Source of the DNA: Escherichia phage HY02
Sequence record: KM092515
Strand: one strand, 5' to 3'
Length of the DNA stretch: 64,000 bases
Shown piece after piece: positions 9,303-59,492 of this stretch. The notes under the pieces are model-generated. The model was given only the letters and a program-made list of their open reading frames with translations, was not told the DNA's origin and did no database searches. The position numbers and the translations under genes were made by a program. Every line of letters starts with the position of its first letter. Positions within the stretch are counted from its first letter, which is position 1.

Positions 9303-9316
9303 GAAAGTACTTTACA

Positions 9317-9346
9317 GGGGGCTTAAAAGTTGGTATCTTAAGCCCC
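9317..9346 (+). other. conserved intergenic hairpin (type B)
   Basis: GGGGCTTAA...TTAAGCCCC followed by AGATAAAGAGCTTTAC. Confidence 0.5.
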
Positions 9347-9387
9347 AGATAAAGAGCTTTACATAATCCTAAACTGGAGATTCAAAA

Positions 9388-10600: not shown

Positions 10601-10612
10601 AGTACTTTACAA

Positions 10613-11090: not shown

Positions 11091-11103
11091 AAAAAAAAAA
11101 CTG

Positions 11104-11132
11104 TTGACACTGATTTTTAGATAGATTAAATT
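11104..11132 (+). promoter_or_regulatory. sigma70-like early promoter (duplicate of 10235-10263)
   Basis: TTGACACTGATTTTTAGATAGATTAAATT repeated verbatim. Confidence 0.5.
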
Positions 11133-11197
11133 ACACATCAACGGGGAGGGAATGACCTTCCCCACTAAGTAAAGTCCTTAAACTAGGAGATTCAAAA

Positions 11198-11401
11198 ATG
11201 GCTATTATTAACGGCTTAAACATTGAAACAACACACATCAAAGACATCAAAGTTGGTGATGTAGTCCTTTCCCACGGCGTAGAGAAAACTGTTACTGCAA
11301 AGGATATTAAAGAGGATTCTTTCATGGGTAGAACTCTCTTCGGTGATTCTTATTGCTTAGGTTATCTTGCAGTTTTAAAAGTTGTCAAAAATAATCGTTA
11401 A
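11198..11401 (+). CDS. hypothetical small early protein
   Basis: conserved type A leader upstream. Confidence 0.65.
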   Translation: MAIINGLNIETTHIKDIKVGDVVLSHGVEKTVTAKDIKEDSFMGRTLFGDSYCLGYLAVLKVVKNNR

Positions 11402-11413
11402 AGTACTTTACAA

Positions 11414-11442
11414 GGGGCTTAAAAGCTGATATCTTAAGCCCC
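11414..11442 (+). other. conserved intergenic hairpin (type B)
   Basis: GGGGCTTAA...CTTAAGCCCC. Confidence 0.5.
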
Positions 11443-11486
11443 AGATAAAGAGCTTTACCACTAAATCCTAAACTGGAGATTCAAAA

Positions 11487-12029
11487 ATGAAATGCTTTCA
11501 CGGTACTACTCAAGAAAACTTCATCAACCTGATTAATAACGGTGATAAACCATCAGGCGCATGGAATTGTTCGGATATGGACGGCAATTTTTACGTGTAT
11601 CCAGAAAATAAAATCTATGGCGACGATGAGGAAGAAATAGCATCAGAAGGTATCCAACAAGCTCTAGGAAATGCCACTATCACCGCAGCTTTCCAGATGA
11701 AAACCCAAAATATTGTTATCTTAGAACTAGATATTCCAGAGGATGAGCTAAATGATGATTATTCTTGTGATAATATGTCGAGTGTAGCAAGTTTTACAGA
11801 GTACTTTGATGTAAATTGGATTAAAAAGGTCTATACAACAGAGTTTAACGCTATGTATTCACCTTTTTGTCTTCCTTCATTGGATAACCCAAATTTAAAC
11901 TATCTTGATGAGTCTCTGGAGCTTCTCGCTAAAAGTGTTCAACATTCAGACAGTATTCAGGTTTTTTGTGACATCATGGATACACTGACAGGAAACATTG
12001 CAGAAGAGGATTTAAAGAGCTTTTTCTAA
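11487..12029 (+). CDS. hypothetical acidic early protein
   Basis: 180-aa ORF preceded by CCTAAACTGGAGATTCAAAAATG. Confidence 0.6.
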   Translation: MKCFHGTTQENFINLINNGDKPSGAWNCSDMDGNFYVYPENKIYGDDEEEIASEGIQQALGNATITAAFQMKTQNIVILELDIPEDELNDDYSCDNMSSVASFTEYFDVNWIKKVYTTEFNAMYSPFCLPSLDNPNLNYLDESLELLAKSVQHSDSIQVFCDIMDTLTGNIAEEDLKSFF

Positions 12030-12061
12030 AAACCTATGCAATCACCTTATAAACACTAATC

Positions 12062-12083
12062 AGCCCCTTGTAGGGGCTTTTAG
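12062..12083 (+). terminator. intrinsic terminator (weak U-tract)
   Basis: AGCCCC-TTGT-AGGGGCT followed by TTTAG. Confidence 0.45.
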
Positions 12084-12095
12084 AGGGCTTAAATC

Positions 12096-12329
12096 ATGTT
12101 GACAACCGTTTATCTCATCCTTTCTATTTGTAATGGTCATTCATGCGATTTTAAAGGGCTTGAGGAGTTTACAGGGAGTAAAGAAAATGCTATTCAAGTT
12201 TGCCAGATAGCAAGGCAAGACTATCCCGCCAGTGATGATATACAATGTTACTTTAAGACAGAAGATAGCGACGGCGTTTATTTTGATAGCGTCGATGGTC
12301 AATATGAAATTATCATTGAAAAAGACTAG
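12096..12329 (+). CDS. hypothetical protein
   Basis: 77-aa ORF; lacks the conserved leader and overlaps a TTGACA motif, so coding status is uncertain. Confidence 0.3.
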   Translation: MLTTVYLILSICNGHSCDFKGLEEFTGSKENAIQVCQIARQDYPASDDIQCYFKTEDSDGVYFDSVDGQYEIIIEKD

Positions 12330-12418
12330 ACAAGCCTGATAAAAATCTGTAAATTGTCAATCAACGGGGAGGGAATGAACTTCCCCACTAAACAAAGTCC
12401 TAAACTGGAGATTCAAAA

Positions 12419-12760
12419 ATGGCTTATGTAACCGTAATTACCGATAAAGCTGACTCATCTTGGTCAACTCAAGTCAGTGATAAGATGTCGCCTATGCAGT
12501 GCCTAAAATACTTTGAGCAGTGGAACAAAGGCGAGGATGTAAGCCCCTTTCAGGTAATGCAAATCATCCATACAGATAACGAAGGGAATAAAACTACCTT
12601 AAACAGTGAATACTACGCAAGCCGTTTTGAAACGAGAAGTAAAACAATGAAGATTTTACGTGAATCCGGCTATTCTCATATTGCCGCGCTAATCTGGGAT
12701 GACCTGCTAAAAAGCCAGCGTATCAGCTATGTAAAACCTGAAAAAATATTCATCAGTTAA
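12419..12760 (+). CDS. hypothetical small early protein
   Basis: conserved type A leader upstream. Confidence 0.65.
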   Translation: MAYVTVITDKADSSWSTQVSDKMSPMQCLKYFEQWNKGEDVSPFQVMQIIHTDNEGNKTTLNSEYYASRFETRSKTMKILRESGYSHIAALIWDDLLKSQRISYVKPEKIFIS

Positions 12761-12980
12761 TCAACAACTTACAAAAAACTTTTAAAAAAGTGTTGACAAC
12801 TCCCCTTGACATTGGTAACTTTGTTCGAGGGGGTTTATCTAAAAGGGATTAACTTAAAAGATTCTTTATAGATAAACTTAAAAAATTGCTTGCAATCAGC
12901 TATCAAAACAAGTAAATTACTAATCAACGGGAAGGCAATAACCTCCCCACTAAATAAAGTCCTAAACTGGAGATTCTAAA

Positions 12981-13511
12981 ATGAACAAATTTCAAGCTAT
13001 CAACTTCATTCGTTCAAATGCTGTAATGTCTAAGCCTGTTAAAGATACCTATGAATTTCGTTGCAATGGTGTACACTTTGCAACCATTACCAAATCAGAA
13101 AACGGGGCTTATTACGTCCATCGTCGTAATGTTTCCACCGTTGTAGTCTCTCACTTTATGCAAGCTGTCGCGGAACTTCTCCCGATGTTTTTAGGTCTTT
13201 ACTTAGATGATTGTAAAAACGTTCACAATCACGTTAAAAACCTTTTAAATGGTTATAAAATGGCTTATGAACGTTCTATCAAGTCCTTGAACAAGTTCTA
13301 TAAAGCACCTGTAAATACCGTTTCAATGGCCTACGGCATAGGTGGCTGGACTGTTAACCTTTCTCTAGTGGAAGAAATCGAGCTTTATGATTTACGTCCT
13401 AGCGGTTACTCTAAGACACTGGGAGAAGGTTTAACGTTCAATATCAAGAACTTAGAAAAAACTTTAAAAGATATTGAAAAAGACATTGACGAGACAATCA
13501 AAAATCTGTAA
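12981..13511 (+). CDS. hypothetical small early protein
   Basis: conserved type A leader upstream. Confidence 0.65.
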   Translation: MNKFQAINFIRSNAVMSKPVKDTYEFRCNGVHFATITKSENGAYYVHRRNVSTVVVSHFMQAVAELLPMFLGLYLDDCKNVHNHVKNLLNGYKMAYERSIKSLNKFYKAPVNTVSMAYGIGGWTVNLSLVEEIELYDLRPSGYSKTLGEGLTFNIKNLEKTLKDIEKDIDETIKNL

Positions 13512-13577
13512 ATTGTCAATCAACGGGGAGGGGATGACCTTCCCCACTAAATAAAGTCCTAAACTGGAGTTATCAAG

Positions 13578-13841
13578 ATGGAAAACGTAGAATTAACCAC
13601 ACTATTGCAAATTGCAACTGACAAAGAAGACGTAGCACTGTTTCACCGCATCGAAAGCGATTTGTTCAATGGTGAAATCATCAAAGAATCTTATGAAGTT
13701 GTCGGATTCAAAGATGGTAAAGCGTTTGGATTCTTTGACCTCGACAAAAGCAACGCGGTTATAAAATATGATGTTTTATCTTGTGAGATTCTTACAAAAT
13801 ACAACGAAAAAAGGCTTGCAACATACGCCAACATGCAGTAA
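13578..13841 (+). CDS. hypothetical small early protein
   Basis: type A leader with variant RBS CTGGAGTTATCAAGATG. Confidence 0.6.
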   Translation: MENVELTTLLQIATDKEDVALFHRIESDLFNGEIIKESYEVVGFKDGKAFGFFDLDKSNAVIKYDVLSCEILTKYNEKRLATYANMQ

Positions 13842-13906
13842 ATTACTAATCAACGGGGAGGGATGGCCTCCCTACTAAATAAAACCTTAAACTAGGAGAT
13901 TCTAAA

Positions 13907-14155
13907 ATGGCTACTATCCGCGCAACTGTTAACGAATTCGGCTTTTGCTCTCTGGATGTTAAATTTGACCTTGTAGGCACTGATAACGCCTTTGAGATGG
14001 TGAAAGGTCTTATCTGTCAGACCATCAAAGACTATAACCCTTCTGATGAGTTCTGGAAAGAAACAAAACAGGAAGTTCTTAAAGAGGGTTATTCTTATCA
14101 CTATTGGGGTGAAAAAATTGTCTCCCTGTACTACGACAAAGAAGGTACTAACTAA
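13907..14155 (+). CDS. hypothetical small early protein
   Basis: conserved type A leader upstream; last gene before the terminator. Confidence 0.6.
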   Translation: MATIRATVNEFGFCSLDVKFDLVGTDNAFEMVKGLICQTIKDYNPSDEFWKETKQEVLKEGYSYHYWGEKIVSLYYDKEGTN

Positions 14156-14195
14156 ACGCCGCAACGGGGCTAAATAGCCCCAGATACCTTTATAC

Positions 14196-14218
14196 AGCCC
14201 CTCACAGGGGCTTTTTTA
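14196..14218 (+). terminator. intrinsic terminator ending the early + strand block
   Basis: AGCCCCT-CACA-GGGGCT followed by TTTTTT; a second hairpin GGGGCTAAATAGCCCC lies at 14166-14181. Confidence 0.7.
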
Positions 14219-14219
14219 C

Positions 14220-15849
14220 GTCTATCCAATCCTTATACAATACCTTTCCTCACCTTTTCAGAATCTTATCAGACCTTAAAAGCAATAACTCTATAGTCTA
14301 CTCTATAGCCTTTTATCAAATCAACTTAAATATAAGCCAATAACCCCAGAAAGGGGATGGCCCATTTAAACGCTCTATAAAGCGCTATAACAGCCTTATC
14401 AACCTAACTTAAGGGATTGCATTAACTCACCCTTAAAAGCTCTTTACAGGGCTTTATAGAGGCTTAAAAGAATCTTATAAGGGTATAAGCTAATAGGTTG
14501 GCTAGTATCTTGTGAATAACTAAACAATCCCCTTGATAGTCACTAAAAAGTATGTTATAGGGGGCTATAAAGTTACTTCAAAGTTACGTGATAGATAGCT
14601 TAAAAGTTACGTAAATGCTAGCCCCCTTAACATTTTCTTAACAATTTCTTAACAATCCCCTACATAGTTATGCTTGTTAGAGACTTGTTAGCCCCTTGTT
14701 AAATCTCTGTTACAACCACGTAAAAGCCTTGTAAGAACCTTTGGCATAGCCTTAAAAGCCCCTGTAAAGCCCTATAAAGAGCTATCCATACAGTTGAGGG
14801 GTAAATACTAGGAAGAGGCTTAAAAGAACTTATAAGGGGCTATAGAGAGCTTTTAAGAGGCATGTTTAAGGAATCACTAAGAAATAAAGGGAACTATAAG
14901 AAAAGAGATAGTGACCATGTTAATAGCTTGTTAAAAAGATTAAACACTTGTTAGAAACTTGTTAATTATCTTAACAAAAATAACTCTTTAAAATTAACTT
15001 GTTAGCTCTTGTTAGTCATCTGTTAAGATTCTGTAAAGCCTATTCAGCACTTGTTAGAAAACTGTTACAGCCTTGTTAGTTCTGTTAAGAACCTGTTAAT
15101 ACCTTTGAAGAGTTGTTAAGAAGATGTGAGAACTGTTAAGAGATTGTTAAGGATATTTTAAAATTTTGCAAAGTACTTGTAAGGGAGCTGTTAAGGGCTA
15201 CCAAGCAGATATACATCTTCTACAGATATTTTTCAGTTCCTTCAAAGACCCTAAAAAATGACTTGATAGCCCTATTTTATAAAAATTTTAAAATTCTGAA
15301 TAATTACCTAGACAGTCTTTTAAAAATACAGGCATAAACAGGCTTATAAGATACCTTGTTAGTACCGTGTTAGACCTTGTGGGGTAAGGTCTGCAAAGAT
15401 ATTCCTGTTAAGTTTGTTAAAACAGTCTATATAGAGGCTTAGTATCCCCTAGTGAACACCTATAGAGGGTAACATAGCTAACCTAATGGGTTACTGTTAA
15501 GTAACACAGATAACCTAGAGATTAAGAGGTGTATAGGAGCTTCTAAGATGGTGTAGAGAGATGGTTAAGGTGATTGTATAGGTTGTTAAGAAGGCTTGTT
15601 AGAGGGCTTGTTAGAAGGGCTATACAGAGGGGCTATTAAGACCACTAGATAGATACTAAGATACTATATAGTACTATATAACTATATATAGAGAGTAAGC
15701 TTAAGAAGGTTGTTAAGAAGGGTAGATATTTTATTCACATATGATGGTGACCCAGAGGTTGGGACAACCGATAAAATTTTATAAAAAATATAAATTTCGT
15801 AAATTTTACTCAATAAAAAGCCCCCAATTAAGGAGGCTCTTAAGATATT
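14220..15849. repeat. ORF-free region with dense short direct repeats (CTTGTTAG / CTGTTAAG family) and an AT-rich CTATATA tract; candidate origin or regulatory hub
   Basis: no ORF over 1.6 kb; more than 25 copies of (C/G)TTGTTA(G/A) and CTGTTAAG, densest at 14930-15200; CTATATA three times at 15661-15695; recurring CTTAAAAG/CTTATAAG/CTATAAAG words at 14340-14870. Confidence 0.6.
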
Positions 15850-16443
15850 TTAAATCAGTGTTTCCAGAACTGTTTTTAATGATGACTTGGTTGTCTGATA
15901 AAAATGAGTGAATCCATTGTTGTTATCGAATATCTGCATCATGATATCATCTCCCTTGATTGGGTACACTCGGATATCATAGTGAAAACCATTAAAGACA
16001 CAAGAACCACTACAGAATGCTCTAAAGTCATCCACTGAGATATACTCTTCATGACCTGTGATTTTTATACAGACGCCTTTACTCGGCCTCTTAGGGTTGA
16101 TATCTTCCATCACAGACATACTCTGCCCACCAAGAGATACCATAGTGACTACTTTACGGTTCTTCTGTCTAAAGTACATCTTAACTTTCTGTAAAGTGTC
16201 TTCATAGAACGGATAAGACTTCTCTACAAAGATTCCTTCTAATGGCTCTTTACCGTTTACAATACCTCTGGTATGACGTACTGAGAAGATAAGTTGCTCT
16301 AGTATGTCAAGGCTTTCTTCGGATAGTGCTTCCCGAATATCATTCCAGTCAAGGACTAGATAGTTGCCTTCAACTTCTTTTAAGTTATCTTTTTCCATAT
16401 CTATCACACCATTATCGTAAAACTTGGTAATCTGGAACAGCAA
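15850..16443 (-). CDS. hypothetical protein
   Basis: 197-aa ORF at the 3' end of the - strand block. Confidence 0.5.
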   Translation of the reverse strand: MLFQITKFYDNGVIDMEKDNLKEVEGNYLVLDWNDIREALSEESLDILEQLIFSVRHTRGIVNGKEPLEGIFVEKSYPFYEDTLQKVKMYFRQKNRKVVTMVSLGGQSMSVMEDINPKRPSKGVCIKITGHEEYISVDDFRAFCSGSCVFNGFHYDIRVYPIKGDDIMMQIFDNNNGFTHFYQTTKSSLKTVLETLI

Positions 16444-16876
16444 ACTTGTTATCGTTGTTCTTAATGAGGTCTTCTTCTGTTACTAAGAATGTAAGACCAC
16501 ACAAGTGTGTATATCTGCTATCATACTCAAATATTTTAAGTAAGTATTTACCATCGTGATAAACAGATTCTACTACACCTTTTGCAACAATCTTTCCAGT
16601 CTTGAAGTCTTTAAGAGGGTATACGTTACCAACTTTAGGAACTGTTTTCATCTCAGGTTCTTTTAGCTTCTCACCAACTTCTACATCACCTAGTAAGTGA
16701 GAACTTTCAAAAGCTACATGTTGCATATAAGCCTCTGAGCATTCCCAGATAAAGCAACTTACAAGAGCCTTAGCAGCATGTCTTGAACAATTCAACTTAT
16801 CACAAATCTCTTTGTACATTTCATCTTTAGTTGAGTTGTTAAGCATTGCTTTTTGAACTACTTCTTTAATTTTCAT
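16412..16876 (-). CDS. hypothetical protein
   Basis: 154-aa ORF. Confidence 0.5.
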   Translation of the reverse strand: MKIKEVVQKAMLNNSTKDEMYKEICDKLNCSRHAAKALVSCFIWECSEAYMQHVAFESSHLLGDVEVGEKLKEPEMKTVPKVGNVYPLKDFKTGKIVAKGVVESVYHDGKYLLKIFEYDSRYTHLCGLTFLVTEEDLIKNNDNKFAVPDYQVLR

Positions 16877-16929
16877 TTCGCTACCTTCTAAGTTCCTACA
16901 AAGGGGCTATCAAGTAACCCCTCGAGTTA

Positions 16930-17154
16930 CTACTCAGACTTTTCAGTCTTCTTATCAGATTTCTTACTAGTCTTCTTCTCAGCTTTCTGCTCAGGTTCCT
17001 TCTCAGAAGTTGCCTTGATAACCGTATCAAGAAGCTCTGATAAGTCACTCTTCAGCAAAGTAACAGGCTGCTCATTGTAGAAGTTTTTGTCAAGATAAAC
17101 TTTAAATTCTTCTATAGAAGGGAATCCAAAAATTGGTACAGGTGTCTTAATCAT
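16930..17154 (-). CDS. hypothetical lysine-rich small protein
   Basis: 74-aa ORF with KK-rich C-terminus. Confidence 0.4.
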   Translation of the reverse strand: MIKTPVPIFGFPSIEEFKVYLDKNFYNEQPVTLLKSDLSELLDTVIKATSEKEPEQKAEKKTSKKSDKKTEKSE

Positions 17155-17230
17155 TACTTAGTTTCTCCATAGGCATCTTTTAAGATTGCCTTGTTAATCA
17201 TTTCAGCGATTGCAAAACGAACACATACAG

Positions 17231-17764
17231 CTATAATTGTAGGTTGCATTCTTTACTTACCTCTTCCAGTTTAACCTCAGAATCCTTAAGACGTTTCTTA
17301 TGAACTCTGAATCTCATTAGTGCGATGATGATACCAACTAAAGGAACAGCATACAAGTACCAAACATCATATACCTTTGCATTAATCTGTGTAATGGTTA
17401 AGTCTTGAGCTATGGAACTGATTGCTGATACTGCCAGTAATGTTGCTAGGAAAAATGCCAGTACCATAACAATACTTAAACAACCTCTGGCATGGTGTTC
17501 ATGCTTAATGCACTTATTCTTTTCGTCAACAACCCTGTTGTAGTCATTTGTAAAGTCTCTGTAGAAAGCTTTCAAGTATTCTTGACTGTAGCCTTCAAAG
17601 CAACCTGTACCGTACCAATAATCACCACCAAAATGTGCTATAATACCGGTATCTCCATTTGGTTTGGTTACTCTCAAAGAAGTATGATGACGAGTATCCT
17701 GATAATCTATTTTATATCTTTCTTCGTAAATCATTTTCCAACCCCTCTCAATCGTTTGTTCCAC
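17231..17764 (-). CDS. hypothetical membrane protein
   Basis: two hydrophobic segments (LSIVMVLAFFLATLLAVSAI, VPLVGIIIALM). Confidence 0.5.
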   Translation of the reverse strand: MEQTIERGWKMIYEERYKIDYQDTRHHTSLRVTKPNGDTGIIAHFGGDYWYGTGCFEGYSQEYLKAFYRDFTNDYNRVVDEKNKCIKHEHHARGCLSIVMVLAFFLATLLAVSAISSIAQDLTITQINAKVYDVWYLYAVPLVGIIIALMRFRVHKKRLKDSEVKLEEVSKECNLQL

Positions 17765-17964
17765 TCAAGGTCAACAAGTCTTTGTAGGACTTTACCTCTA
17801 GGTGTTACACCTTTTAAATCTGCATCGTAGCAACGGTAAAAGTCACCTTCAGCGTGTTTACCATAGCATTTTCTGATATTCTGACTTCTACGGTATTGTT
17901 CTAATAGAGACAGTCTGTAGTAATCTTCAACTGTAGTTAGTTTTTTCATTCTTTCACCACGCAT
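17731..17964 (-). CDS. hypothetical protein
   Basis: 77-aa ORF. Confidence 0.4.
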   Translation of the reverse strand: MRGERMKKLTTVEDYYRLSLLEQYRRSQNIRKCYGKHAEGDFYRCYDADLKGVTPRGKVLQRLVDLEWNKRLRGVGK

Positions 17965-18032
17965 CTTCTTAAGAAACTAAAAAGGGAACTACCTCTCGAT
18001 AGCTCCCATCATAGTTAACATTGTATATTCGG

Positions 18033-18614
18033 TCAAGAGTATTTTTTAGGCAGTAATGCGCTACGTTTGTTACTCTCTTCACTCAACAGTGCGATGAAGT
18101 CATCACCTTTGCCTTTCCACGGGCTGAATGAAGGGATATGTTCACGAATAGCCTCAATAACCGTCTTAAGTGCTGTATTTTTCATCCACCAATCAGAGTC
18201 TGCTGATGCCACTACGTAGTATCCACCTTCATCAGTCAGAATTGGCTCTGAGATACATGGTGAAATCAGAGTGGTGACGATTGAACCATTATTCATGTAG
18301 TATGTGCGCTTCATAACCTTTTCAAGAAGCTTGTGAAGGTCACCAAACAGTGTTACAAGCTCTTTATGGTCAATGTCTTTTTCGAGATTTGCTCGATACT
18401 TCAAAAGTGCAGCATCAACTTCTCTGTCATTAAACTTGAAGTACTGGACTTCCTCAACAAGACAAACACTGATGTTGTTGACATTCATAGTCAACTTGCA
18501 GACTTTTGCAGAAGAATTGATATTTGGTTGAAAAAGTGCAATACACCCTTCAATGTTTCCAAAATGTTGTACTAATGTCACTTGTGGAGTGATACTCTGT
18601 TGCTCTTCGGACAT
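18033..18614 (-). CDS. hypothetical protein
   Basis: 193-aa ORF. Confidence 0.5.
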   Translation of the reverse strand: MSEEQQSITPQVTLVQHFGNIEGCIALFQPNINSSAKVCKLTMNVNNISVCLVEEVQYFKFNDREVDAALLKYRANLEKDIDHKELVTLFGDLHKLLEKVMKRTYYMNNGSIVTTLISPCISEPILTDEGGYYVVASADSDWWMKNTALKTVIEAIREHIPSFSPWKGKGDDFIALLSEESNKRSALLPKKYS

Positions 18615-18958
18615 TACAGTTTCCTCATTAAATACTTTTTAAGTTGTGTGTTAGGTTTCTCAAAAACTTCTATAGAAGATATCTTGACAGACTCACCACG
18701 CATACCTGTATGTTTAAATATGTAATACTCTAACATCCCTATGTACTTTGCTGGTAAGTCATGTTTGACATACACTGTTACAGAATCTTCAAACTCAACA
18801 ACCTTTGTACCATCTTTGTAGTTGAACTCTTTAGGATGGTTGTAGTTGTCTATGTCATACATTAAAAAGAGTCTTTTACGTTGTAAGTCAAGCTTATTGG
18901 TTAAAGACTCTTTAATATCTGAGAAGTTTTTGTACACTGTGACATGGAGCTTACTCAT
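18614..18958 (-). CDS. hypothetical protein
   Basis: 114-aa ORF, coupled to neighbours. Confidence 0.5.
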   Translation of the reverse strand: MSKLHVTVYKNFSDIKESLTNKLDLQRKRLFLMYDIDNYNHPKEFNYKDGTKVVEFEDSVTVYVKHDLPAKYIGMLEYYIFKHTGMRGESVKISSIEVFEKPNTQLKKYLMRKL

Positions 18959-19244
18959 CGTTAAACTCTCTGACGAAGAAATAGTTGACTTTATTATTAC
19001 CTACCATAAGGTCAAAGCAGGTATTCTCAAAAGGTTTGTTGTAGGCATCGTATGAAGTGTACGTATCAGCTACTTGTTTAGTATTGAGCTTTTTACTTGA
19101 TGGGTTTAAGAGGCCACCATACAGCTTCTTGATAGCCTCTTCTACAACAGACCAGATGATTTCGTCAGTAATTTCTTCGTACAGGTCAAGTTCACGCTCT
19201 AGTGAGAAGTCACAAATAGGGAAGATAACCTGTACTTTGCTCAT
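18951..19244 (-). CDS. hypothetical protein
   Basis: 97-aa ORF. Confidence 0.5.
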   Translation of the reverse strand: MSKVQVIFPICDFSLERELDLYEEITDEIIWSVVEEAIKKLYGGLLNPSSKKLNTKQVADTYTSYDAYNKPFENTCFDLMVGNNKVNYFFVREFNDE

Positions 19245-19639
19245 TAACGAATAACCTGTGAAACTTGAATTGCTTCAGTTACAGACAAATCACCAACTTT
19301 CTCTTCTTTGATGAAAGTAAAGGTGAGTTCAACAGGTTCTTGCTCTTCTTGCTCAACTGGAATACCGTTAAGCTCATCAAAGATTGATTGGGTAGTCCAG
19401 TCTTCTCCACCATCTGGATAGTGGATGGCATAAAGAGGAAACTCTAAATTATACCAAGCAAAAACAGGGCAACCATCTGCATCATCTCGACATCTGTGGA
19501 GATATGTGTTTGTACCTTCAAAATGCAAATGGAGATTACCATTCTTCTCAAAGAGAAGAGCATCTTTCAGGTCTAGTTCCTCATTTTTGCTGTAACGGCT
19601 GACATCAACTTTAACGTGAATATGACTGTTATTATTCAT
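19244..19639 (-). CDS. hypothetical protein
   Basis: 131-aa ORF. Confidence 0.5.
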   Translation of the reverse strand: MNNNSHIHVKVDVSRYSKNEELDLKDALLFEKNGNLHLHFEGTNTYLHRCRDDADGCPVFAWYNLEFPLYAIHYPDGGEDWTTQSIFDELNGIPVEQEEQEPVELTFTFIKEEKVGDLSVTEAIQVSQVIR

Positions 19640-20030
19640 AAAAACCTCTCTCTGCTTGTTCGATTTTTGCTTTTAGAACTTCACACCGTTCAATGTGATA
19701 TCTGGCTTCATGTTCATGTGTCGCCAAAGTTCTTTCAAGAATGGTTTTATAGTAACCTGCAAGCTGACCTCTTGTCAATGGGTTCTCTGAAATAATATCG
19801 AGACCACTTTCACCCAGAGTATTAAACTGCCCATGTTCATTTACATGATAAGTCTCAAACTTGAATAAACCATTATTAGCAGCCTCAATAGGTGAGAGTT
19901 CAACCAACTCAACGGTGAACATTGTGTGCACCCTATCACCAACTGTAACAATGTTACTTCCAATGATACGTACAAGCGAACCATTACGAGTGTACTTAAA
20001 AGTCCCGAAGTCACTAGCCCAAAGCTTCAT
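19632..20030 (-). CDS. hypothetical protein
   Basis: 132-aa ORF. Confidence 0.5.
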   Translation of the reverse strand: MKLWASDFGTFKYTRNGSLVRIIGSNIVTVGDRVHTMFTVELVELSPIEAANNGLFKFETYHVNEHGQFNTLGESGLDIISENPLTRGQLAGYYKTILERTLATHEHEARYHIERCEVLKAKIEQAERGFYE

Positions 20031-20044
20031 AGTTTTCTCCTTAG

Positions 20045-20073
20045 AAAATAAAAAAGGCTCCAGAAGGAGCCTA
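20045..20073 (-). terminator. intrinsic terminator downstream of the endolysin gene
   Basis: AGGCTCC-AGAA-GGAGCCT hairpin with an A-run on the + strand (U-run on the - strand transcript). Confidence 0.6.
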
Positions 20074-20081
20074 TGAAGATA

Positions 20082-20546
20082 TTACTTTGGGTATACACTG
20101 TCAAGATAAATGTCAGCTTCCATTCTACGTCTGTTTTTCAGACCGTTTGAAGTGACCTTCTTACCTTTGACTGTAACCTTGTTCCACCACTGCATAGCTT
20201 CTGCACAACCCACCTTATTACCAGCATTGTGGCGCTTGATAAATGTAGAATCCTGCATAGCTGTGATACCGATGTTGTATGTTTCACTTACAAGTGCATC
20301 GAACTCATTCTGAGAAGTTGGAACCTTGATAGCTTTGTTCACTGCTGCAACAAACTTCTCAACATCTGCAAGAAGATACTGTTCAGCTTGTTCAGCAGTA
20401 ATTTTCATACCCATCTTAACAGGTTTTCCGTCAATACGGATTGTACCATACCCGATTGTCGGGATTCCGGCAGAGTCTTCGTAAGCCTCTAACTTCAGAC
20501 CTTCAAAGAACTTAATAGCTTCTAAACCTTTTCTTGAGAGTTGCAT
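20082..20546 (-). CDS. endolysin, T4-type lysozyme (GH24)
   Basis: N-terminal EGLKLEAYEDSAGIPTIGYG matches the T4 lysozyme catalytic-region pattern. Confidence 0.8.
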   Translation of the reverse strand: MQLSRKGLEAIKFFEGLKLEAYEDSAGIPTIGYGTIRIDGKPVKMGMKITAEQAEQYLLADVEKFVAAVNKAIKVPTSQNEFDALVSETYNIGITAMQDSTFIKRHNAGNKVGCAEAMQWWNKVTVKGKKVTSNGLKNRRRMEADIYLDSVYPK

Positions 20547-21679
20547 TATGCCTCCCCTGCTGGGTTAACAGTAACTGTTGCCGCATTAGATGTCACAGAG
20601 CCACCTGCACCAGTAACTACACAGGTGTATGCACCAGCATCAGCAGGGGCTGCTTTAGCTTTCGTGTAAGTTGCACCAGTTGCGCTAGGGATGTTCACAT
20701 TGTCTTTCTTCCATTGGTAACCTGTTGCACCTGTAGCCTCAACGCTCAGCGTCAAACTACTACCTTCGTTGACTGCTTGATTGGTTGGCTGCTTGGTAAT
20801 CACTGGTAGAGCGTTTACTACAACAGTCGCAGGGCTAGAAGTAACAGAACCACCTGCACCCGTTACAACGCAAGTGTATGAACCTGCATCTGCTGGCAGT
20901 GCGCCAGACTTGCTATAAGTAGCTTCTGTAGCTGAAGGGATGTCAGAGCCATCTTTTTTCCATTGGTAACCTGTTGCACCTGTTGCAGCCACTTCCAAGT
21001 TGATATTCCCACCCTCATTGATGGTCTGGCTAGAAGGTTGCTGTGTAATCACAGGTAGTGCATTAACAGTAACTGTTGCCGCGTCTGAAGTAACACTTGT
21101 CCCAGCCTCTCCAGATACAACACAAGTATATGAACCAGCATCGGCAGGTACTACAGATTGTTTTGTGTAAGTTGCAGAAGTGGCACTGGAGATGTCCTCA
21201 CCATCCTTCTTCCACTGATATCCAGTGGCGTTATTTGCGAGAACGCTTAGAGTGAGTGTACCACCCTCATTAACTGTTTGGTTTGTTGGTTGCTGAGTAA
21301 TTGCTGGTGGCTTAATTGCATCCTTCAGCTTAGCATTCAACATTGAGAACGGCTTAACTCTTGCCAACCATTCACAATACACTGTATCAACATCTTTACC
21401 ATTGATAATTGCATATTGTAAATCCATGAAGAAGTCAGAAGTTCTCATTTGAGCACCGACGCTGTAAAGCAAATCATCACTAAAAGGGACTTTATAGTCT
21501 GGTTTGTAGTCAAACTTCTCAACTTCTGCGATATCAGCTTCAGGCCAATATGAGCTATAGGTTAGTGGTAAAATAGCTTCTTGATATGTTCTAAAATCAT
21601 ATCTCTTACCAGCCTTTACGTTTGCAATGAAGCCCTTCACAAACTCTTTGAAGTCTGGGTAAGTCTTTGCTTTAATCAT
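20546..21679 (-). CDS. protein with three tandem Ig-like domains and an N-terminal domain shared with the upstream gene
   Basis: three repeats of roughly 90 aa (PVITQQP..Q.INEGG...L.V.ATGATGYQWKKDG.DI.SAT.ATY...AG.YTCVV.GAGGSVTS..ATV.VN). Confidence 0.6.
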   Translation of the reverse strand: MIKAKTYPDFKEFVKGFIANVKAGKRYDFRTYQEAILPLTYSSYWPEADIAEVEKFDYKPDYKVPFSDDLLYSVGAQMRTSDFFMDLQYAIINGKDVDTVYCEWLARVKPFSMLNAKLKDAIKPPAITQQPTNQTVNEGGTLTLSVLANNATGYQWKKDGEDISSATSATYTKQSVVPADAGSYTCVVSGEAGTSVTSDAATVTVNALPVITQQPSSQTINEGGNINLEVAATGATGYQWKKDGSDIPSATEATYSKSGALPADAGSYTCVVTGAGGSVTSSPATVVVNALPVITKQPTNQAVNEGSSLTLSVEATGATGYQWKKDNVNIPSATGATYTKAKAAPADAGAYTCVVTGAGGSVTSNAATVTVNPAGEA

Positions 21680-22047
21680 TTCTTTTTAGCCTCTAAATGT
21701 GCGTTTAGTCTAAAATAACCTTTATGATGTGAAGATACATCGCCAACAATAATACCTTTAATCTCATAACCCTTACCAATCACATATTGGATATCCATAA
21801 GAAATCTACCAAGACCAACAATATGAAACATTGGATATAATAGATTTTCAGAATCTGGAATGTGCATTTCAGGGTTGTAGGCAGGTTGTTCACTCGTTGG
21901 TGTGATATCTTCTTCAGGCCATTTACTTAGTCTCCATGTCAAAGGTGTTGGGATAACATCACTAAGATTGTACCTCTCACCCTTTTTCACAGAATTGATG
22001 TAGGATTGTAGGAAGCAGTAAAAGTCTTTTGCACTCTTAGCCTTCAT
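21676..22047 (-). CDS. hypothetical protein, paralogous to the N-terminal domain of 20546..21679
   Basis: shared pattern K.K....F..F....I..VK.G.RY...........L....WPE.DI in both N-termini. Confidence 0.5.
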   Translation of the reverse strand: MKAKSAKDFYCFLQSYINSVKKGERYNLSDVIPTPLTWRLSKWPEEDITPTSEQPAYNPEMHIPDSENLLYPMFHIVGLGRFLMDIQYVIGKGYEIKGIIVGDVSSHHKGYFRLNAHLEAKKK

Positions 22048-22056
22048 TAAATATCC

Positions 22057-22088
22057 TTATAAATAGTAAAAGGGGTAATAACCCCCCT
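22057..22088 (-). terminator. intrinsic terminator (- strand)
   Basis: GGGG-TAATAA-CCCC hairpin with A-run upstream on the + strand. Confidence 0.45.
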
Positions 22089-22096
22089 ATCTACAC

Positions 22097-22687
22097 TTAA
22101 GCTTTAGTCTTAAGTAGGTTCTTAAGTTTTTTGAGATTCATACTCTCATCGAACTTAAAACCAAATCCATTGACATAATCAATGAACTCGGATTTTTTAC
22201 TAAGTGATAGCGCATAATCCATATCAAAGTTGTTACTTGTTTCTGCGTCTGGACTAGAGTTCACATCAAATGAAATTTCTGTAGGCTCTTGCTTACTCTT
22301 TCTCATGTTATCAACTAATAAACAGGTATAGTTTGCTGGATAGAAGTTCACGCTCCCATCAACGTAACTGTACTTATTATTGTGGATAAGGTTGGAAAAT
22401 ACCTTAAGAAATGTTTCTGAGTCGTGGCATACAAGCTTGAATTGACTAGACTCTCCAAGAGCAACCAATGAGTACGGACTTTCACTATCAAAGTCATAGT
22501 TTGGATTCGATGCCGTCACTGTTACACGCATCAGGTTATTGGCGATAGTTTTCTGCTTAAAAGAATTTGGAACATAGTGAAGACCTCTGTCACACTGGTT
22601 AACTAGCTCTTTCAAGAGGTCATTTGCATATGGTGAATTAATTGATACAGAGCCATCACTATTGTAATTAAAAGTTACTGTTAACAT
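22097..22687 (-). CDS. hypothetical protein
   Basis: 196-aa ORF. Confidence 0.5.
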   Translation of the reverse strand: MLTVTFNYNSDGSVSINSPYANDLLKELVNQCDRGLHYVPNSFKQKTIANNLMRVTVTASNPNYDFDSESPYSLVALGESSQFKLVCHDSETFLKVFSNLIHNNKYSYVDGSVNFYPANYTCLLVDNMRKSKQEPTEISFDVNSSPDAETSNNFDMDYALSLSKKSEFIDYVNGFGFKFDESMNLKKLKNLLKTKA

Positions 22688-22914
22688 TTTTCAGTTCTCC
22701 TGCGATTTATAATTTTGCTGCAATAGAGAAACGAAGTAAACTCACTGGAAGAAACCATCAAGTGTTGTTCACTAGATTGAGCCATTGCCCTGAAATACAT
22801 TCCAGTCAAAGCATCATAGTGACTATTCTTTCCAATTGAGGTTATATAGCCATGACTCTTTGCAGTTTGATATAAATCTATAATATCTGCGATTTCTAAT
22901 TTGGAACTACACAT
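22681..22914 (-). CDS. hypothetical protein
   Basis: 77-aa ORF, first gene of the - strand block. Confidence 0.35.
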   Translation of the reverse strand: MCSSKLEIADIIDLYQTAKSHGYITSIGKNSHYDALTGMYFRAMAQSSEQHLMVSSSEFTSFLYCSKIINRRRTEKC

Positions 22915-23306
22915 AGATAATCCTCTTGTCTTCTGTAATTTTGAAAGAACAGGTACAGACCAATTTCAGAGGATGAATAGTAGAGTAACTCTACCCTTTT
23001 TGATTCCTTACAGTGATTGGTATTTTTACCTTTCTTCGGGTTATTTGATTTTCTCATTAAGTCTCCTTTGTAGAACAAGGCAGACCTACAGCTTTAAGTA
23101 AGATGGTACAGTAATCCATACAACAAGTCAAGAACTATTACAAGTTAAAAAAGTTGTTGACAAAGTACTTGACAAGGTGTAGGCTTATAAATACTTAGAA
23201 GATAACTTAAAAGGTTCCTCTAAAAAGGCTATTTAAACAGATATCTTTCTGGATATCTATCTTTTATCTTAAAAGCCTTTTAAGAGGTCTTATAAGAGGC
23301 ATACCA

Positions 23307-23678
23307 ATGAAAAACAGAACAAACAAAGGCCAGTTTAAAAAAGGCCAATCTGGAAACCCATCTGGAAGACCAAAAGGCTCTCGTAACAAAAGCTCACTTG
23401 TAAAAGCTCAACTGACCATTGATAATTCTGCTGAGTTTGCTGCAAAGCTGTTTGAGGCAATTGTTACAAGGGACGCTGCTAAGCTTGCAGAGTTCGGGTT
23501 AAACACAGACGACGTAACCATCAAGAGTATGATTGAGGTCGGTAAAACTATCTTTACTCACTCAGCAGGTGAGATGAAAGCACTTGCAGCAGACACTAAG
23601 AAGACTCCTGATAATGGTGGTCAACCACAGACAGATAACAAACCAACGTTCTCTGCTGTAGCGACTCTCAAAAAATAA
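23307..23678 (+). CDS. hypothetical protein with GNPSGRPKG motif
   Basis: N-terminal KKGQSGNPSGRPKGSRNK basic motif. Confidence 0.5.
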   Translation: MKNRTNKGQFKKGQSGNPSGRPKGSRNKSSLVKAQLTIDNSAEFAAKLFEAIVTRDAAKLAEFGLNTDDVTIKSMIEVGKTIFTHSAGEMKALAADTKKTPDNGGQPQTDNKPTFSAVATLKK

Positions 23679-23690
23679 TTTTAAAAGGTG

Positions 23691-23720
23691 TTGACAGACT
23701 ATACAAAGTTGCTCTAAAGT
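23691..23720 (+). promoter_or_regulatory. sigma70-like promoter upstream of the Ro60-like gene
   Basis: TTGACA, 18-bp spacer, TAAAGT. Confidence 0.4.
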
Positions 23721-23759
23721 CTGTCACATCAAACAACAAATGAGAGAAGAGAGTAAAAT

Positions 23760-25175
23760 ATGAGCGAGTTATTTAAACATGCGCACCTTCATGCAGGTCG
23801 AACTGAAAATGGTGCTGTAAACCATACTTCATCAATGTCTGCTCTGGTAGACTTCTACAAAGCCGCTGGTTCAAGCCGTAGCAATGTAGAAATCTTACCA
23901 GACCTGTTCTACAAAGCTTTGCGTGAGGATGTTGATGTTGCAGTTCGTATTTTACTGCATATGCGAGATGTACGAGAAGGTATGGGCGAGCGTAAAGCTT
24001 TCCGAACTGTTTTACTTCAAGCGATTGAAGATAAAGTTTTAGAACCTACACAGGTTCTTCGCATTATGGATAAGATTGTAGAACTTGGTCGTTTTGATGA
24101 CTTCAAAATCTTCGTAGGTACTCGTTTCGAGACAGATGCCTTCAAACATTTAGAAGCAGCATTACTAGACCCTGCAACAGCAGGTTTAGCAGCTAAGTGG
24201 TTACCACGAGTAAAACCACGCCACAAACAGTTTGTAAAACGTTTCTGCAAGTTTGCAAACTTAAGCGAGAAAGAGTACCGCACACTGTTATCTGCACTAT
24301 CTGATACAGTTGAACAAAAAATCTCTGCTAATGAGTTTGGTAAGATTGACTACAGTAAGATTCCTTCACTTGCTGCTGCACGTTACCAAAAGCTCTTTAA
24401 CCGCAAAGATGGAGAACGCTACAAAGCTTACATCGAGTCCTTATCAAAGGGTGAGGCTAAGATTAACGCTGGTGCTGTTTACCCATACGATGTGATTAAA
24501 TCTATTAAGTATGGTAATGCAGATGTTGCTAATGAGCAGTGGAAAGCACTTCCAAACTGGATGGCAGAAGGTGAAAACATCTTGTGTATGACTGATGTTT
24601 CAAGCTCAATGTCTTGGGTGAATCTTGGTTCAATCACTGCTCTGGATATTGGTGTATCACTTGCCTTGTATGTAGCAGAACGTAATACAGGTTGCTTTAA
24701 AGATGAGTTAATGGTTTATTCAACAAACCCTCATTTCATTGAACTGAGTGGTGATTTACGAAACCGTCATCGTCAGGTAATGCGTCATGTTGAATATGGT
24801 TCAACTAACTTACAAGCAGCTTTTGACCGTATTCTTGAGGTAGGCAAGAGAAACAACTTGACTCAGAAAGATATGCCAAGTAAGCTTATTATCTTCTCTG
24901 ATATGGAGTTTAATCAGGTTGATGGTGCAAATGGTCGTACAAACTTTGAAGCAATTCAGAGTAAGTACAAAAAAGCTGGATACGAAATGCCACAACTGGT
25001 ATTCTGGTACTTAGCAAACCGTAATGGTACTTGCGAAGTATCCGTTAAGGATAACGGTGTAGCAATGGTATCAGGGTTCTCTCCAGCAACTTTAAAAGCT
25101 CTGCTTGGTGGTGAGAAGTTTGACCCAATCAGCGTAATGCTTAAAGCAGTAATGATTGACCGTTATATCTGGTAA
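23760..25175 (+). CDS. rsr: Ro60/TROVE-like protein with C-terminal vWA domain (Rsr-like)
   Basis: vWA MIDAS motif DVSSSM (Ro60 has DVSASM); YPYDVIKSIKYG resembles Ro60 HPFHILIALETYK; FSDMEF resembles Ro60 FTDNET; C-terminal GFSPATLKAL resembles Ro60 GFDTGALDVI (from recalled Ro60 sequence, not a search). Confidence 0.65.
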   Translation: MSELFKHAHLHAGRTENGAVNHTSSMSALVDFYKAAGSSRSNVEILPDLFYKALREDVDVAVRILLHMRDVREGMGERKAFRTVLLQAIEDKVLEPTQVLRIMDKIVELGRFDDFKIFVGTRFETDAFKHLEAALLDPATAGLAAKWLPRVKPRHKQFVKRFCKFANLSEKEYRTLLSALSDTVEQKISANEFGKIDYSKIPSLAAARYQKLFNRKDGERYKAYIESLSKGEAKINAGAVYPYDVIKSIKYGNADVANEQWKALPNWMAEGENILCMTDVSSSMSWVNLGSITALDIGVSLALYVAERNTGCFKDELMVYSTNPHFIELSGDLRNRHRQVMRHVEYGSTNLQAAFDRILEVGKRNNLTQKDMPSKLIIFSDMEFNQVDGANGRTNFEAIQSKYKKAGYEMPQLVFWYLANRNGTCEVSVKDNGVAMVSGFSPATLKALLGGEKFDPISVMLKAVMIDRYIW

Positions 25176-25193
25176 AAAGTTTTAAAAAGGGTA

Positions 25194-25222
25194 TTGACAA
25201 TGTGTTTGATACCCTTTAATAT
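25194..25222 (+). promoter_or_regulatory. sigma70-like promoter upstream of the tRNA cluster
   Basis: TTGACA, 17-bp spacer, TAATAT; overlaps an inverted repeat AAGGGTAT...ATACCCTT. Confidence 0.5.
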
Positions 25223-25284
25223 GTTCTACATAGAAACGAAATGAGAGCTTTCCTAAGATACTGAAAAATATTTTAAAAAAGTTC

Positions 25285-25313
25285 TTGACAACCACTAAAA
25301 AATAATGTTAAAG
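25285..25313 (+). promoter_or_regulatory. sigma70-like promoter upstream of the tRNA cluster
   Basis: TTGACA, 17-bp spacer, TTAAAG. Confidence 0.4.
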
Positions 25314-25340
25314 TGGTTACATAGAGTTTGAAAAGTTTAT

Positions 25341-25417
25341 CTCTGTTTAGCTCAGCTTGGTAGAGCGTTCCGTTTGGGGCGGTAAGGCCGGAGGTTCAAG
25401 TCCTCCAACAGAGACCA
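25341..25417 (+). tRNA. tRNA-Pro (UGG)
   Basis: acceptor CTCTGTT/AACAGAG, T-arm GGAGG-TTCAAGT-CCTCC, encoded CCA; anticodon loop TTTGGGG. Confidence 0.55.
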
Positions 25418-56928: not shown

Positions 56929-57258
56929 TTAATCTGCCAACCTTAAATTAAAATTAACACCAAATTTTTCACATACTTCCAACATAAACTCAAGAGAAAC
57001 ATTACCAGTGAGATTGATTATGTTGGATACACGAGCCTGAGAGATACCACAAATCTTAGCAACTTGCTCTTGAGAGAGACCTCTGGATTTAATCTCTCTC
57101 TTAAAACGATGTGCAACGAAGTCTCTCATTTCGTCTACATCCATCGGACAAATATAACTCTCCATTTCAGCCTCTCTGTCAGCCTCCCAATCATCTTGTG
57201 GAGCATAAGGGTCAAAAGCTTCATTCATCTTTCTTCTTCCGTTTGCGTGAAGTGTCAA
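56929..57258 (-). CDS. helix-turn-helix (XRE-family-like) transcriptional regulator
   Basis: LSQEQVAKICGISQARVSNII pattern typical of the XRE HTH. Confidence 0.6.
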   Translation of the reverse strand: MTLHANGRRKMNEAFDPYAPQDDWEADREAEMESYICPMDVDEMRDFVAHRFKREIKSRGLSQEQVAKICGISQARVSNIINLTGNVSLEFMLEVCEKFGVNFNLRLAD

Positions 57259-57818: not shown

Positions 57819-58029
57819 AATGACCTCAAAGTTATATTAAATTTTGTATTACATTGAGTATAAAAATAAGCTATAACACCTGACTTGTCAACAGATTTTA
57901 TAGCTTATTTGGCAGATTTTTTATAAGGCTACTGCCATCCTTCCATACCTAACCCAACCAGACCTAACCCCACCGAACCAAACCTTACCTTACTTCACCC
58001 TACCTTATTAAAAGACCCTCTTAAAGACC

Positions 58030-58057
58030 TTTTAAAAAGGAGCCTCCGAAGAGGCTA
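58030..58057 (-). terminator. intrinsic terminator (- strand)
   Basis: AGCCTC-CGAA-GAGGCT hairpin with A-run on the + strand just downstream of gene 58068..58508. Confidence 0.55.
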
Positions 58058-59116: not shown

Positions 59117-59492
59117 TTAGTTGATTGTTAAGTTGTTTGTAAAGAACCCTCAACAGAAGACTCTTTAGAAACTTGGTAGATTTTTAACGTGGCTACTACC
59201 ATCCACCCATGCTTTACCGTACCTGACAGTACAACACTTCAACTTACCCAACCACACCTTACCTTATTAAAAGACCCTCTTAAAGACCTTTTAGAAAGGT
59301 AAGTCTCATTTTAATGTAGCTGAGACTAACTACCCACACCAAACCATAGCATACATCGCATTACCGGACAGAGCCATACTTTACCAGACATCACTTAAAA
59401 ACCCTCTTAGAAGACTCTTAAGTGATGCTGGTGAGTACCCGTCGGTTTATGCTGCTCAGTATACTCACCAAATTTTCTATGTCAACAACTTT

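Follow-up and report, generated by a model that had tools for sequence, protein, structure and literature searches.

Here we describe a phased array of 61 short words of the form CT-N4-AG in the genome of Escherichia phage HY02 (sequence record KM092515), which fills a conserved stretch free of open reading frames (ORFs) around the predicted ends of the virion DNA and, on balance, probably serves as a platform for packaging or end formation at the concatemer junction. The window, that is, the whole stretch of DNA analyzed, comprises 64,000 nucleotides and represents a Felix O1-like myovirus of the genus Felixounavirus; its positions 14000-24000 are matched by 255 phage records, mostly at 90-95% identity. 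The ORF-free stretch (positions 14160-15850; 1.7 kb, 34.6% G+C, all internal ORFs at most 43 amino acids long) contains a direct terminal repeat (DTR) that was positioned by homology to relatives with mapped termini, and the boundaries of this DTR carry inverted copies of a distinct motif. From these observations we infer the packaging role, a scheme for cutting of the concatemer and a candidate binder of the words, the product of a DUF5681 gene. Felix O1-like phages are widely used in Salmonella typing, biocontrol and therapy, and their packaging signals and small terminase have remained undefined. The present analysis locates the concatemer junction, proposes exact cut-site motifs, the sequence of which does not vary among three genera, describes a conserved phased array of about 60 copies, and nominates the DUF5681 protein as the DNA-recognition subunit, with a bearing on genome orientation and annotation, on phage engineering, by showing what would have to be kept for packaging, and on the generation of terminal repeats. 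Literature searches yielded no description of the CT-N4-AG array.

The CT-N4-AG array

An earlier reading of this DNA from the sequence alone (hereinafter, the sequence-only reading) had noticed a recurring family of near-palindromic words, exemplified by CTTAAAAG, with clusters at 14340-14870 and in a divergent promoter region (23230-23300), and had interpreted the words as inverted half-sites for a dimeric helix-turn-helix (HTH) regulator. The recurrence is real. The window contains 28 copies of CTTAAAAG compared to 5.3 +/- 2.2 in dinucleotide shuffles (maximum 11), well in excess of what base composition predicts, and inverted half-site pairs (at most one mismatch, gap 0-8) number 10 compared to 0.75 +/- 0.83 expected; pairs weaker than the palindrome at 23267-23285 are located at 14463, 14719, 14819 and 59406. 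The related word CTTATAAG is marginally enriched (4 vs 1.7, with equally high counts in 4 of 100 shuffles), and none of its four copies lies in coding DNA: three belong to the ORF-free region, and the fourth, at 23289, to the DUF5681 leader. We also tested CTTAAAAG under a coding-aware null, with ORF-free, other non-coding and coding DNA counted separately. Under this scheme, the ORF-free region holds seven exact copies (14275, 14432, 14463, 14599, 14751 and 14819 on the + strand, 14850 on the - strand), the other non-coding DNA (6.3 kb) holds nine compared to 1.0 expected, and coding DNA holds 12 compared to 4.2 expected, with all sense-strand copies read as xxC-TTA-AAA-G (Leu-Lys).

The extent of the family is wider than the sequence-only reading had described, and its best descriptor is CT-N4-AG. 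Within the ORF-free region, CTTAAAAG is outnumbered by CTTGTTAG and CTGTTAAG; by 8-mer count, CTTGTTAG is present there in 10 copies, all on the + strand, and in 3 copies elsewhere in the window. In an unbiased scan of all dinucleotide-gap-dinucleotide patterns, CT-N4-AG ranks first by a wide margin (z ~14), and its 61 occurrences between 14160 and 15850 compare to 10.9 +/- 3.2 in Markov-1 simulations (maximum 22 in 2000). The words are spaced 10-12 bp apart, no two of them are closer than 9 bp, and the distances between pairs peak at 10-11, 21-22, 31-33 and 42-44 bp.

The words fall into sub-families that are partitioned relative to the DTR, so that the predicted layout consists of a left flank with CTTAAAAG-type words (14160-14620), the DTR itself (14621-15202), and a right flank with TGTTA(A/G)-type words (15203 to about 15720). 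The left flank, the sub-array of which makes up the left part of the originally noticed 14340-14870 cluster, contains 17 CT-N4-AG words, 10 of these with an unbroken 6-bp A/T core flanked by C and G, and not a single TGTTA[AG] word. By contrast, the right flank contains nine TGTTA[AG] words in the forward and none in the reverse orientation; taken together, the DTR and the right flank contain 27 forward and 4 reverse words of this type, and the first three reverse ones sit at the extreme left end of the DTR. CTTAAAAG-type words are not confined to the left flank, as a patch of them lies inside the DTR at 14728-14857. The right flank of the ORF-free region also includes two 34-nt, near-pure A/T direct repeats (15274-15307 and 15776-15809) that could be DNA-unwinding or bending elements.

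The setting of the array is that of a junction between convergent gene blocks. Genes are directed rightward at 1-14155, leftward at 15850-23078, rightward again at 23307-54299, a block that includes 25 tRNA genes, and leftward from 54335. Convergent predicted terminators are located at both edges of the ORF-free stretch, and the counterparts of both hairpins are annotated as terminators in ASO1A. Promoter-like sites show no excess within the stretch (9 vs 6.7 +/- 2.6 expected), and searches of Rfam gave no match in the ORF-free region and nothing relevant across 13800-25400. Thus, the main cluster at 14340-14870, which is bracketed by terminators, lacks a promoter excess and holds the genome ends, does not appear to be a regulatory region as had been supposed. 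Because most of the words belong to a gene-free array at the genome ends, packaging or end formation seems more likely than gene regulation.

Genome ends and boundary motifs

The ends of the HY02 genome were placed by comparison with relatives. For phage Pr103Blw, a 581-bp DTR has been determined with PhageTerm (PMC8303462); the respective record carries the repeat at both ends (1-581 and 87841-88421), and its first and last bases align to positions 14621 and 15202 of the window, which holds a single collapsed copy of the DTR. The records of ZX4221 and NBSal004 begin at 14621, those of SLAM_phiST56, BPS15Q2 and REP10 begin near this position, and that of pEP20 begins, reverse-complemented, at 15202. 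Position 1 of Erwinia phage Prophecy also aligns to 14621; the second DTR copy is not included at the right end of this record, which accordingly gives no DTR length for Erwinia phages. Short DTRs have been reported for Erwinia Felix O1-like phages.

Both predicted DTR boundaries are marked by the motif TAGCCC(N0-2)TTAACA, which has just two copies in the 64 kb: one lies at 14619-14632 and the other, in the opposite orientation, at 15189-15200. The sequence around the left boundary, GTTACGTAAATGCTAGCCCCCTTAACAT, is near-invariant in 18 genomes, and the right boundary (15189-15215) does not vary at all among the 18 aligned genomes, which represent three genera. BLAST aligned just one segment of the ORF-free region to Erwinia phages (query positions 935-1056), and the right boundary lies within this segment. 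A single forward copy of the boundary motif is present at the expected site in the loci of Felix O1, Michonne, SUSP1 and phiEa104. The two ends of the DTR are inverted repeats of each other (I4/I5), a relationship that is kept in Felix O1, Michonne and SUSP1. Immediately inside the left end, Tandem Repeats Finder (TRF) detects a unit with a period of 11 (14626-14656; 2.8 copies, 95% matches), with 2 to 4-5 copies in different relatives, L011 and GEC_vB_NS7 being examples of this variation.

Conservation of the array in the Ounavirinae

The ORF-free stretch is syntenic, at a length of 1.4-1.7 kb, in Felixounavirus, Mooglevirus, Suspvirus and Kolesnikvirus, and Pectobacterium phage Wc4-1 possesses a comparable 1.4-kb ORF-free junction with 27 CT-N4-AG words; in all, the array was found in every genus of the Ounavirinae examined. 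The word counts are 61 in Felix O1, 62 in Michonne, 58 in SUSP1 and 26 in phiEa104 (7.8 expected in the latter). In the window as well as in Felix O1, Michonne and SUSP1, no other gapped-dinucleotide pattern scores as high as CT-N4-AG (z = 12-14); in phiEa104, it shares the first place (z = 5.9).

Across 17 relatives, conservation of the word positions is 0.87, compared to 0.70-0.78 for 3-bp spacers, and in distant genera, the conservation of the spacers drops to about 0.50-0.57; the CT and AG frame, along with positions T2 and A7, is more conserved than the spacers. The ORF-free regions of Mooglevirus and Suspvirus are about 70% identical to that of the window, and roughly 37 of the 61 words keep their positions there, half of them with altered inner bases, while the totals stay at about 60. 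Judging from these alignments, such turnover of individual words with a steady total indicates selection on the class and density of words. Given that the words are more conserved than the spacers and that their density is kept, they look like selected protein-recognition elements.

These data bear on the possibility that the array has no sequence-specific function and either arose incidentally, when 11-bp units slipped and were duplicated in dispensable DNA, or acts only as curved AT-rich DNA bound by host nucleoid proteins. The variable copy number of the left-end 11-bp unit, the detection by TRF of several short arrays with periods of 11 and 12, and the turnover of word positions between genera are compatible with such an origin. 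However, mere slippage would not readily account for the preferential conservation of the CT/AG frame and of T2 and A7, for word totals of 58-62 in three genera with only about 70% identity to the window in this region, for the sharp partition of the sub-families relative to the DTR, or for the retention of the 1.4-1.7 kb region in every genus examined, and we consider this explanation very doubtful. A search for intrinsic curvature through the periodicity of A/T tracts was abandoned given that the excess over the background is modest.

A putative packaging platform

In the packaging scheme that we favor, the DTR is bounded by the inverted copies of the unique motif TAGCCC(CC)TTAACA, and a DNA-recognition protein would load cooperatively onto words that are one helical turn apart and are presented on one face of the DNA. 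The loaded protein would bring the terminase to both of the inverted motifs at the boundaries, and cutting or nicking at these sites, followed by copying of the interval between them, would produce a terminal repeat on each virion DNA. By analogy, the helical phasing suggests wrapping of DNA on an oligomeric protein. The DUF5681 protein is the candidate binder in this scheme, and the palindromic word pair in the leader of its own gene (23267-23285) could mediate feedback control.

The same region could be viewed as a replication origin, with the words acting as iterons for a phage or host initiator. The stretch is AT-rich and conserved across the subfamily, it contains dozens of helically phased short direct repeats, and the two 34-nt A/T-rich repeats of the right flank could act as unwinding elements. 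These features notwithstanding, there is no adjacent initiator gene (the ORFs neighboring the ORF-free region produced no hits in Pfam), the 8-bp, very numerous words differ from typical iterons of 17-22 bp, conservation is highest precisely at the two DTR boundaries, and the surroundings are those of a convergent junction with a terminator on each side. We therefore regard an origin as unlikely, although a dual role is possible.

The closest architectural analogue of the HY02 array is found in phage T7, another phage with a short DTR, in which an A/T-rich word ending in TAAAG is repeated in non-coding DNA within and beside the terminal repeat. Examination of the T7 sequence identified 12 C[CTA]TAAAG words at 161-400, directly inward of the left copy of the 160-bp repeat, three more within the terminal repeat and three before the right repeat; these are presumably the arrays beside the terminal repetition that are called SRL and SRR. 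The T7 word is a 7-mer, mostly repeated at 13 bp, whereas the HY02 frame spans 8 bp and recurs every 10-12 bp; unlike T7, HY02 has about 60 words over 1.7 kb, in two sub-families partitioned around the DTR, and its DTR is 582 bp rather than 160 bp long. The two arrays share neither sequence nor phage lineage, so that T7 is an analogue and not a member of the same group, and HY02 provides a further, independent case in which to ask what arrays of the T7 style beside terminal repeats do. The pacL and pacR sites of SPP1 and the R-sites of lambda cosB each consist of a handful of elements with a proven small terminase (TerS) binder. Like HY02, these systems have several short elements beside a terminase cut site, and in HY02, the words both flank the boundary motifs and lie between them; the differences are that the degenerate words of HY02 number in the dozens, that its genome has fixed, DTR-bearing ends in place of headful or cohesive ones, and that its binder is a candidate only.

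The DUF5681 protein as a candidate binder

The DUF5681 gene is kept across the Ounavirinae, including Erwinia and Pectobacterium phages. In two contigs of unrelated metagenomic phages (L022 and L025), it shares a 20-nt overlap with the start of terL, the gene for the large terminase subunit (Terminase_6N/3/3C). A position overlapping the start of terL is the classic position of small terminase genes. The protein has an invariant core, KKGxSGNPxGRPxGSxN, which contains GRPKGS; the invariant G20-R21-P22 residues are flanked by K, R and N and belong to an unstructured arm predicted with low confidence, and in the AlphaFold model, this disordered basic arm precedes a helical hairpin. A distant homologue of DUF5681 shows a marginal match to a TerS family in PHROG (E = 0.009). 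The paper describing the Felix O1 genome reports TerL only and no identifiable TerS (PMC3185647). We propose that the DUF5681 protein, gp41 in Felix O1, is probably the missing small terminase, and a candidate binder of the words.

A more specific version of this proposal, which we put forward tentatively and rate as rather doubtful, is that DUF5681 represents a new class of TerS in which an AT-hook-like arm, not an HTH, reads the phased CT-N4-AG words, sets TerL at the boundary motifs and self-regulates via the leader. The GRP-containing core of DUF5681 and the A/T cores of the left-flank words are reminiscent of AT-hooks of the HMGA type and their target sites; the differences are that the match is not significant and that two thirds of the words have a G or C in the core. 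If DUF5681 were such a TerS class, gp41 would be the TerS missing in Felix O1. The 66-amino-acid ORF directly upstream of terL was considered as an alternative TerS and is a weaker candidate, being acidic and helical, with no DNA-binding signature.

Several observations weigh against the packaging scheme and against DUF5681 as its binder. The termini of HY02, at 14621 and 15202, were transferred by homology. The A/T-tract periodicity is only modestly above the background (13.3 vs 6.7 +/- 2.5, maximum 20.1). To our knowledge, the function of the T7 array is unproven, and the analogy is architectural. A large inverted repeat of CTTAAAAG-type words, in which the arm at 14432-14476 pairs with 14751-14783 (I1; 33 nt, 85% complementary) and with 14813-14857 (I2; 45 nt, 71%), has midpoints at about 14611 and 14645 that bracket the left terminus, its right patch includes, at 14819, an operator-like word pair (CTTAAAAG-aa-CTTATAAG), and SUSP1 has a comparable pair; we give this repeat little weight because no counterpart of at least 24 nt was detected in Felix O1 or Michonne. 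Within the window, the DUF5681 gene is about 7 kb from terL (30595-32211), and the two are separated by a Ro60-like gene and the tRNA cluster. No relationship of DUF5681 to known TerS was found by sequence or profile searches of PDB, by Foldseek against PDB, or in NCBIfam. The alignment of the core, GNPSGRPKGSRNK, with the HMG-I/Y AT-hook peptide (PDB 2EZD) is weak (E = 0.13), and Pfam gave no AT-hook hit for the protein. Only 19 of the 61 words have a pure A/T core. The left-flank words of Erwinia phages (CTTCTAAG) differ from their leader words (CTTAAAAG), that is, there is no clean co-variation, and no word array was found beside the DUF5681 gene in the unrelated contig L022/L023. Given the lack of TerS homology, the weak AT-hook match and the fact that only a third of the words are pure A/T, the link between DUF5681 and the words is put forward here as a suggestion.

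The DUF5681 leader and other copies of the words

The palindrome at 23267-23285 upstream of the DUF5681 gene is an element separate from the main array. Here, a single base separates CTTAAAAG (23268-23275) from its reverse complement CTTTTAAG (23277-23284), and CTTATAAG (23289-23296) comes next. The words form a triple with offsets of 9 and 12, and the first two of them lie within a perfect 19-bp palindrome, TCTTAAAAG-C-CTTTTAAGA, or TCTTAAAAGCCTTTTAAGA; a further copy is located at 23206. The leader (23206-23296) is nearly invariant across Felixounavirus, Mooglevirus and Suspvirus. In phiEa104, a CT-N4-AG triple with identical 9 and 12 bp offsets precedes the homologous gene, and in Wc4-1, other CT-N4-AG words follow one another along the leader; the same word types are found in the DUF5681 leader in four genera, and operator-like word pairs are present both in this leader and in the terminal region. 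The divergent promoter region also includes a late promoter word of the T4 type, TATAAATA (23185-23192), which was dismissed because neither Michonne nor SUSP1 conserves it.

The leader is the part of the family that best fits the original proposal, namely, that the words are operator half-sites through which a dimeric HTH regulator, the product of ORF 56929-57258, controls transcription. The 19-bp palindrome, which resembles Cro/CI operators, is situated in a divergent promoter region, its sequence does not vary among three genera, and its counterpart in Erwinia phages is a near-palindrome; inverted half-site pairs are in excess across the window; similar elements are found upstream of - strand genes at 58003 and 59262; and the suggested partner is a genuine HTH_3 protein that also matches a transcriptional regulator in PHROG (1e-26). 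The partnership itself found no support. A tblastn search with the HTH_3 protein matched 259 phage records, no Erwinia phage among them, whereas the Erwinia phages keep both the triple-word element and the array. Furthermore, most of the words lie in the terminator-bracketed, gene-free stretch that contains the genome termini and shows no promoter excess, where about 60 phased words, mostly in the same orientation, are unlike the layout of Cro/CI operators, and the element at 23267-23285 is downstream of the predicted promoter in the window but upstream of the proximal promoter-like site in phiEa104. Overall, control of the word family by this HTH protein appears quite unlikely. An operator role is possible only for the 23267-23285 palindrome, and an RNA hairpin explains this site about equally well.

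The copies outside the terminal region (23206-23296, 58003, 59262, 59392, 9310, 11406, 3592 and 51090) could be features of RNA, namely, AU-rich hairpin arms, A/T tracts of terminators and Shine-Dalgarno contexts (C-TTTT-AAGAGG) involved in mRNA processing, stability and translation, in which case they would resemble the terminal array through shared composition only; such a view is compatible with the packaging scheme for the array itself. The leader RNA is predicted to fold into a 33-pair hairpin (z = -2.85), the base of which overlaps the Shine-Dalgarno sequence, and none of the 33 predicted pairs is lost in four genomes, one of the pairs having undergone a compensatory change from C-G to U-A. 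Element B has a predicted fold with z = -2.65, the word at 51090 consists of a hairpin end followed by TTTT and the AAGAGG ribosome-binding site, the one at 3592 is the A-tract of a terminator, and similar hairpins occur in tRNA spacers. Conversely, a single compensatory event is all that was seen, the Erwinia leader shows no long-range fold (z = 0.0) yet has the word triple at the same 9 and 12 bp offsets, and the same operator-like pairs are found in the untranscribed terminal region. On this evidence, an RNA-level origin of these copies is possible, but less likely than not.

The 45-bp elements that the sequence-only reading had placed upstream of - strand genes do exist, in the form of identical 38-mers, elements A and B, with a degenerate third copy at 59392-59424. 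Element A resembles the leader sequence TAAAAGCCTTTTAAGAGGTCTTATAAGAGG and shares the inner hairpin of element B; its overall fold is not significant (z = -1.15). In the two repeats at 9310-9362 and 11406-11458, the hairpin is flanked by CTTTACAG and AGATAAAG words; the paper on the Felix O1 genome (PMC3185647) lists them as direct repeats of 57 bp and assigns no function to them.

The sequence-only reading had also placed words of the family in hairpins of the tRNA cluster. No exact copy was found within the tRNA cluster; many of the one-mismatch words there are anticodon loops (C-U-NNN-A-A-G), and others are the arms of spacer hairpins, CTTCTAAG...CTTAGAAG. We also considered that the words might be decayed anticodon arms of tRNAs, given that CT-N3-AAG is an anticodon-loop pattern, and rejected this idea because the flanking stems are absent.

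Features and additional observations

Table 1. Features of the HY02 window discussed in the text
Feature	Position	Strand	Basis or remark
Phased CT-N4-AG word array, 61 words	14160..15850	.	Count, spacing
Left-flank sub-array, CTTAAAAG/CTATAAAG/CTTATAAG-type words	14254..14606	+	Without TGTTA words
Right-flank sub-array, mainly CTTGTTAG/CTGTTAAG/TTGTTAAG	15203..15720	+	18 CT-N4-AG words
Direct terminal repeat (predicted), 582 bp	14621..15202	.	Homology to mapped termini of relatives
Left boundary motif TAGCCCCCTTAACA	14619..14632	+	TAGCCC(N0-2)TTAACA
Right boundary, inverted motif TGTTAAGGGCTA and invariant block GGGCTACCAAGCAGATATACA	15189..15215	-	Alignment
11-bp tandem unit CTTAACAnTTT (TTTTCTTAACA), reverse TGTTAAG words	14626..14656	-	Just inside left end
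Left arm of large inverted repeat of CTTAAAAG-type words	14432..14476	.	Repeat pairing I1, I2
Right arms of the same CTTAAAAG-type inverted repeat, inside the DTR	14751..14857	.	Pairing
Terminator-like hairpin AGCCCCTCACAGGGGCT, then TTTTTT	14196..14212	+	Closes + strand gene block
Terminator-like hairpin	15821..15835	-	Closes - strand gene block
DUF5681 gene leader, imperfect 90-nt inverted repeat	23206..23296	+	Ultra-conserved
DUF5681 protein gene, Felix O1 gp41 homologue	23307..23678	+	Pfam DUF5681, 2e-14
HTH_3 (Cro/C1-type) protein, partner proposed in the sequence-only reading	56929..57258	-	Pfam HTH_3, 5e-11
Intergenic hairpin element A, - strand read CCTTTTTAAAAGGTCTTTAAGAGGGTCTTTTAATAAGG	58003..58040	-	38-mer identical to element B
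Intergenic hairpin element B	59262..59299	-	Fold z = -2.65
Intergenic repeat of about 53 bp, hairpin GGGGCTTAAAAG...CTTAAGCCCC	9310..9362, 11406..11458	+	Two copies

Elements A and B are each directly followed by C/A-rich, periodic ACCNN tracts on the + strand (57925-58002 and 59200-59262; TRF periods 15 and 5), which are G/T-rich on the coding (-) strand; one idea is that these tracts are Rho-loading sites on antisense transcripts. In the tRNA cluster, the spacers at 29052-29083 and 27417-27470 form hairpins with CTTCTAAG and CTTAGAAG arms, and CTTCTAAG also predominates among the left-flank words of Erwinia phage phiEa104. The DUF2828/DUF7788 protein encoded at 23760-25175, upstream of the tRNA cluster, corresponds to a Ro60-like RNA-binding protein (Bas63 gp130, PhageMaP preprint).

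A CT-N4-AG cluster at 16930-17010 (within 16650-17250) was examined as a possible part of the array and set aside as an unrelated coding repeat of 12 bp; this tandem repeat (about 4.9 copies, 16949-17007) lies inside the - strand ORF 16930-17154. Finally, the 147-kb record GU169904, assigned to Staphylococcus phage SA1, includes a Felix O1-like genome with about 92% identity to the window and probably is a mixed assembly.

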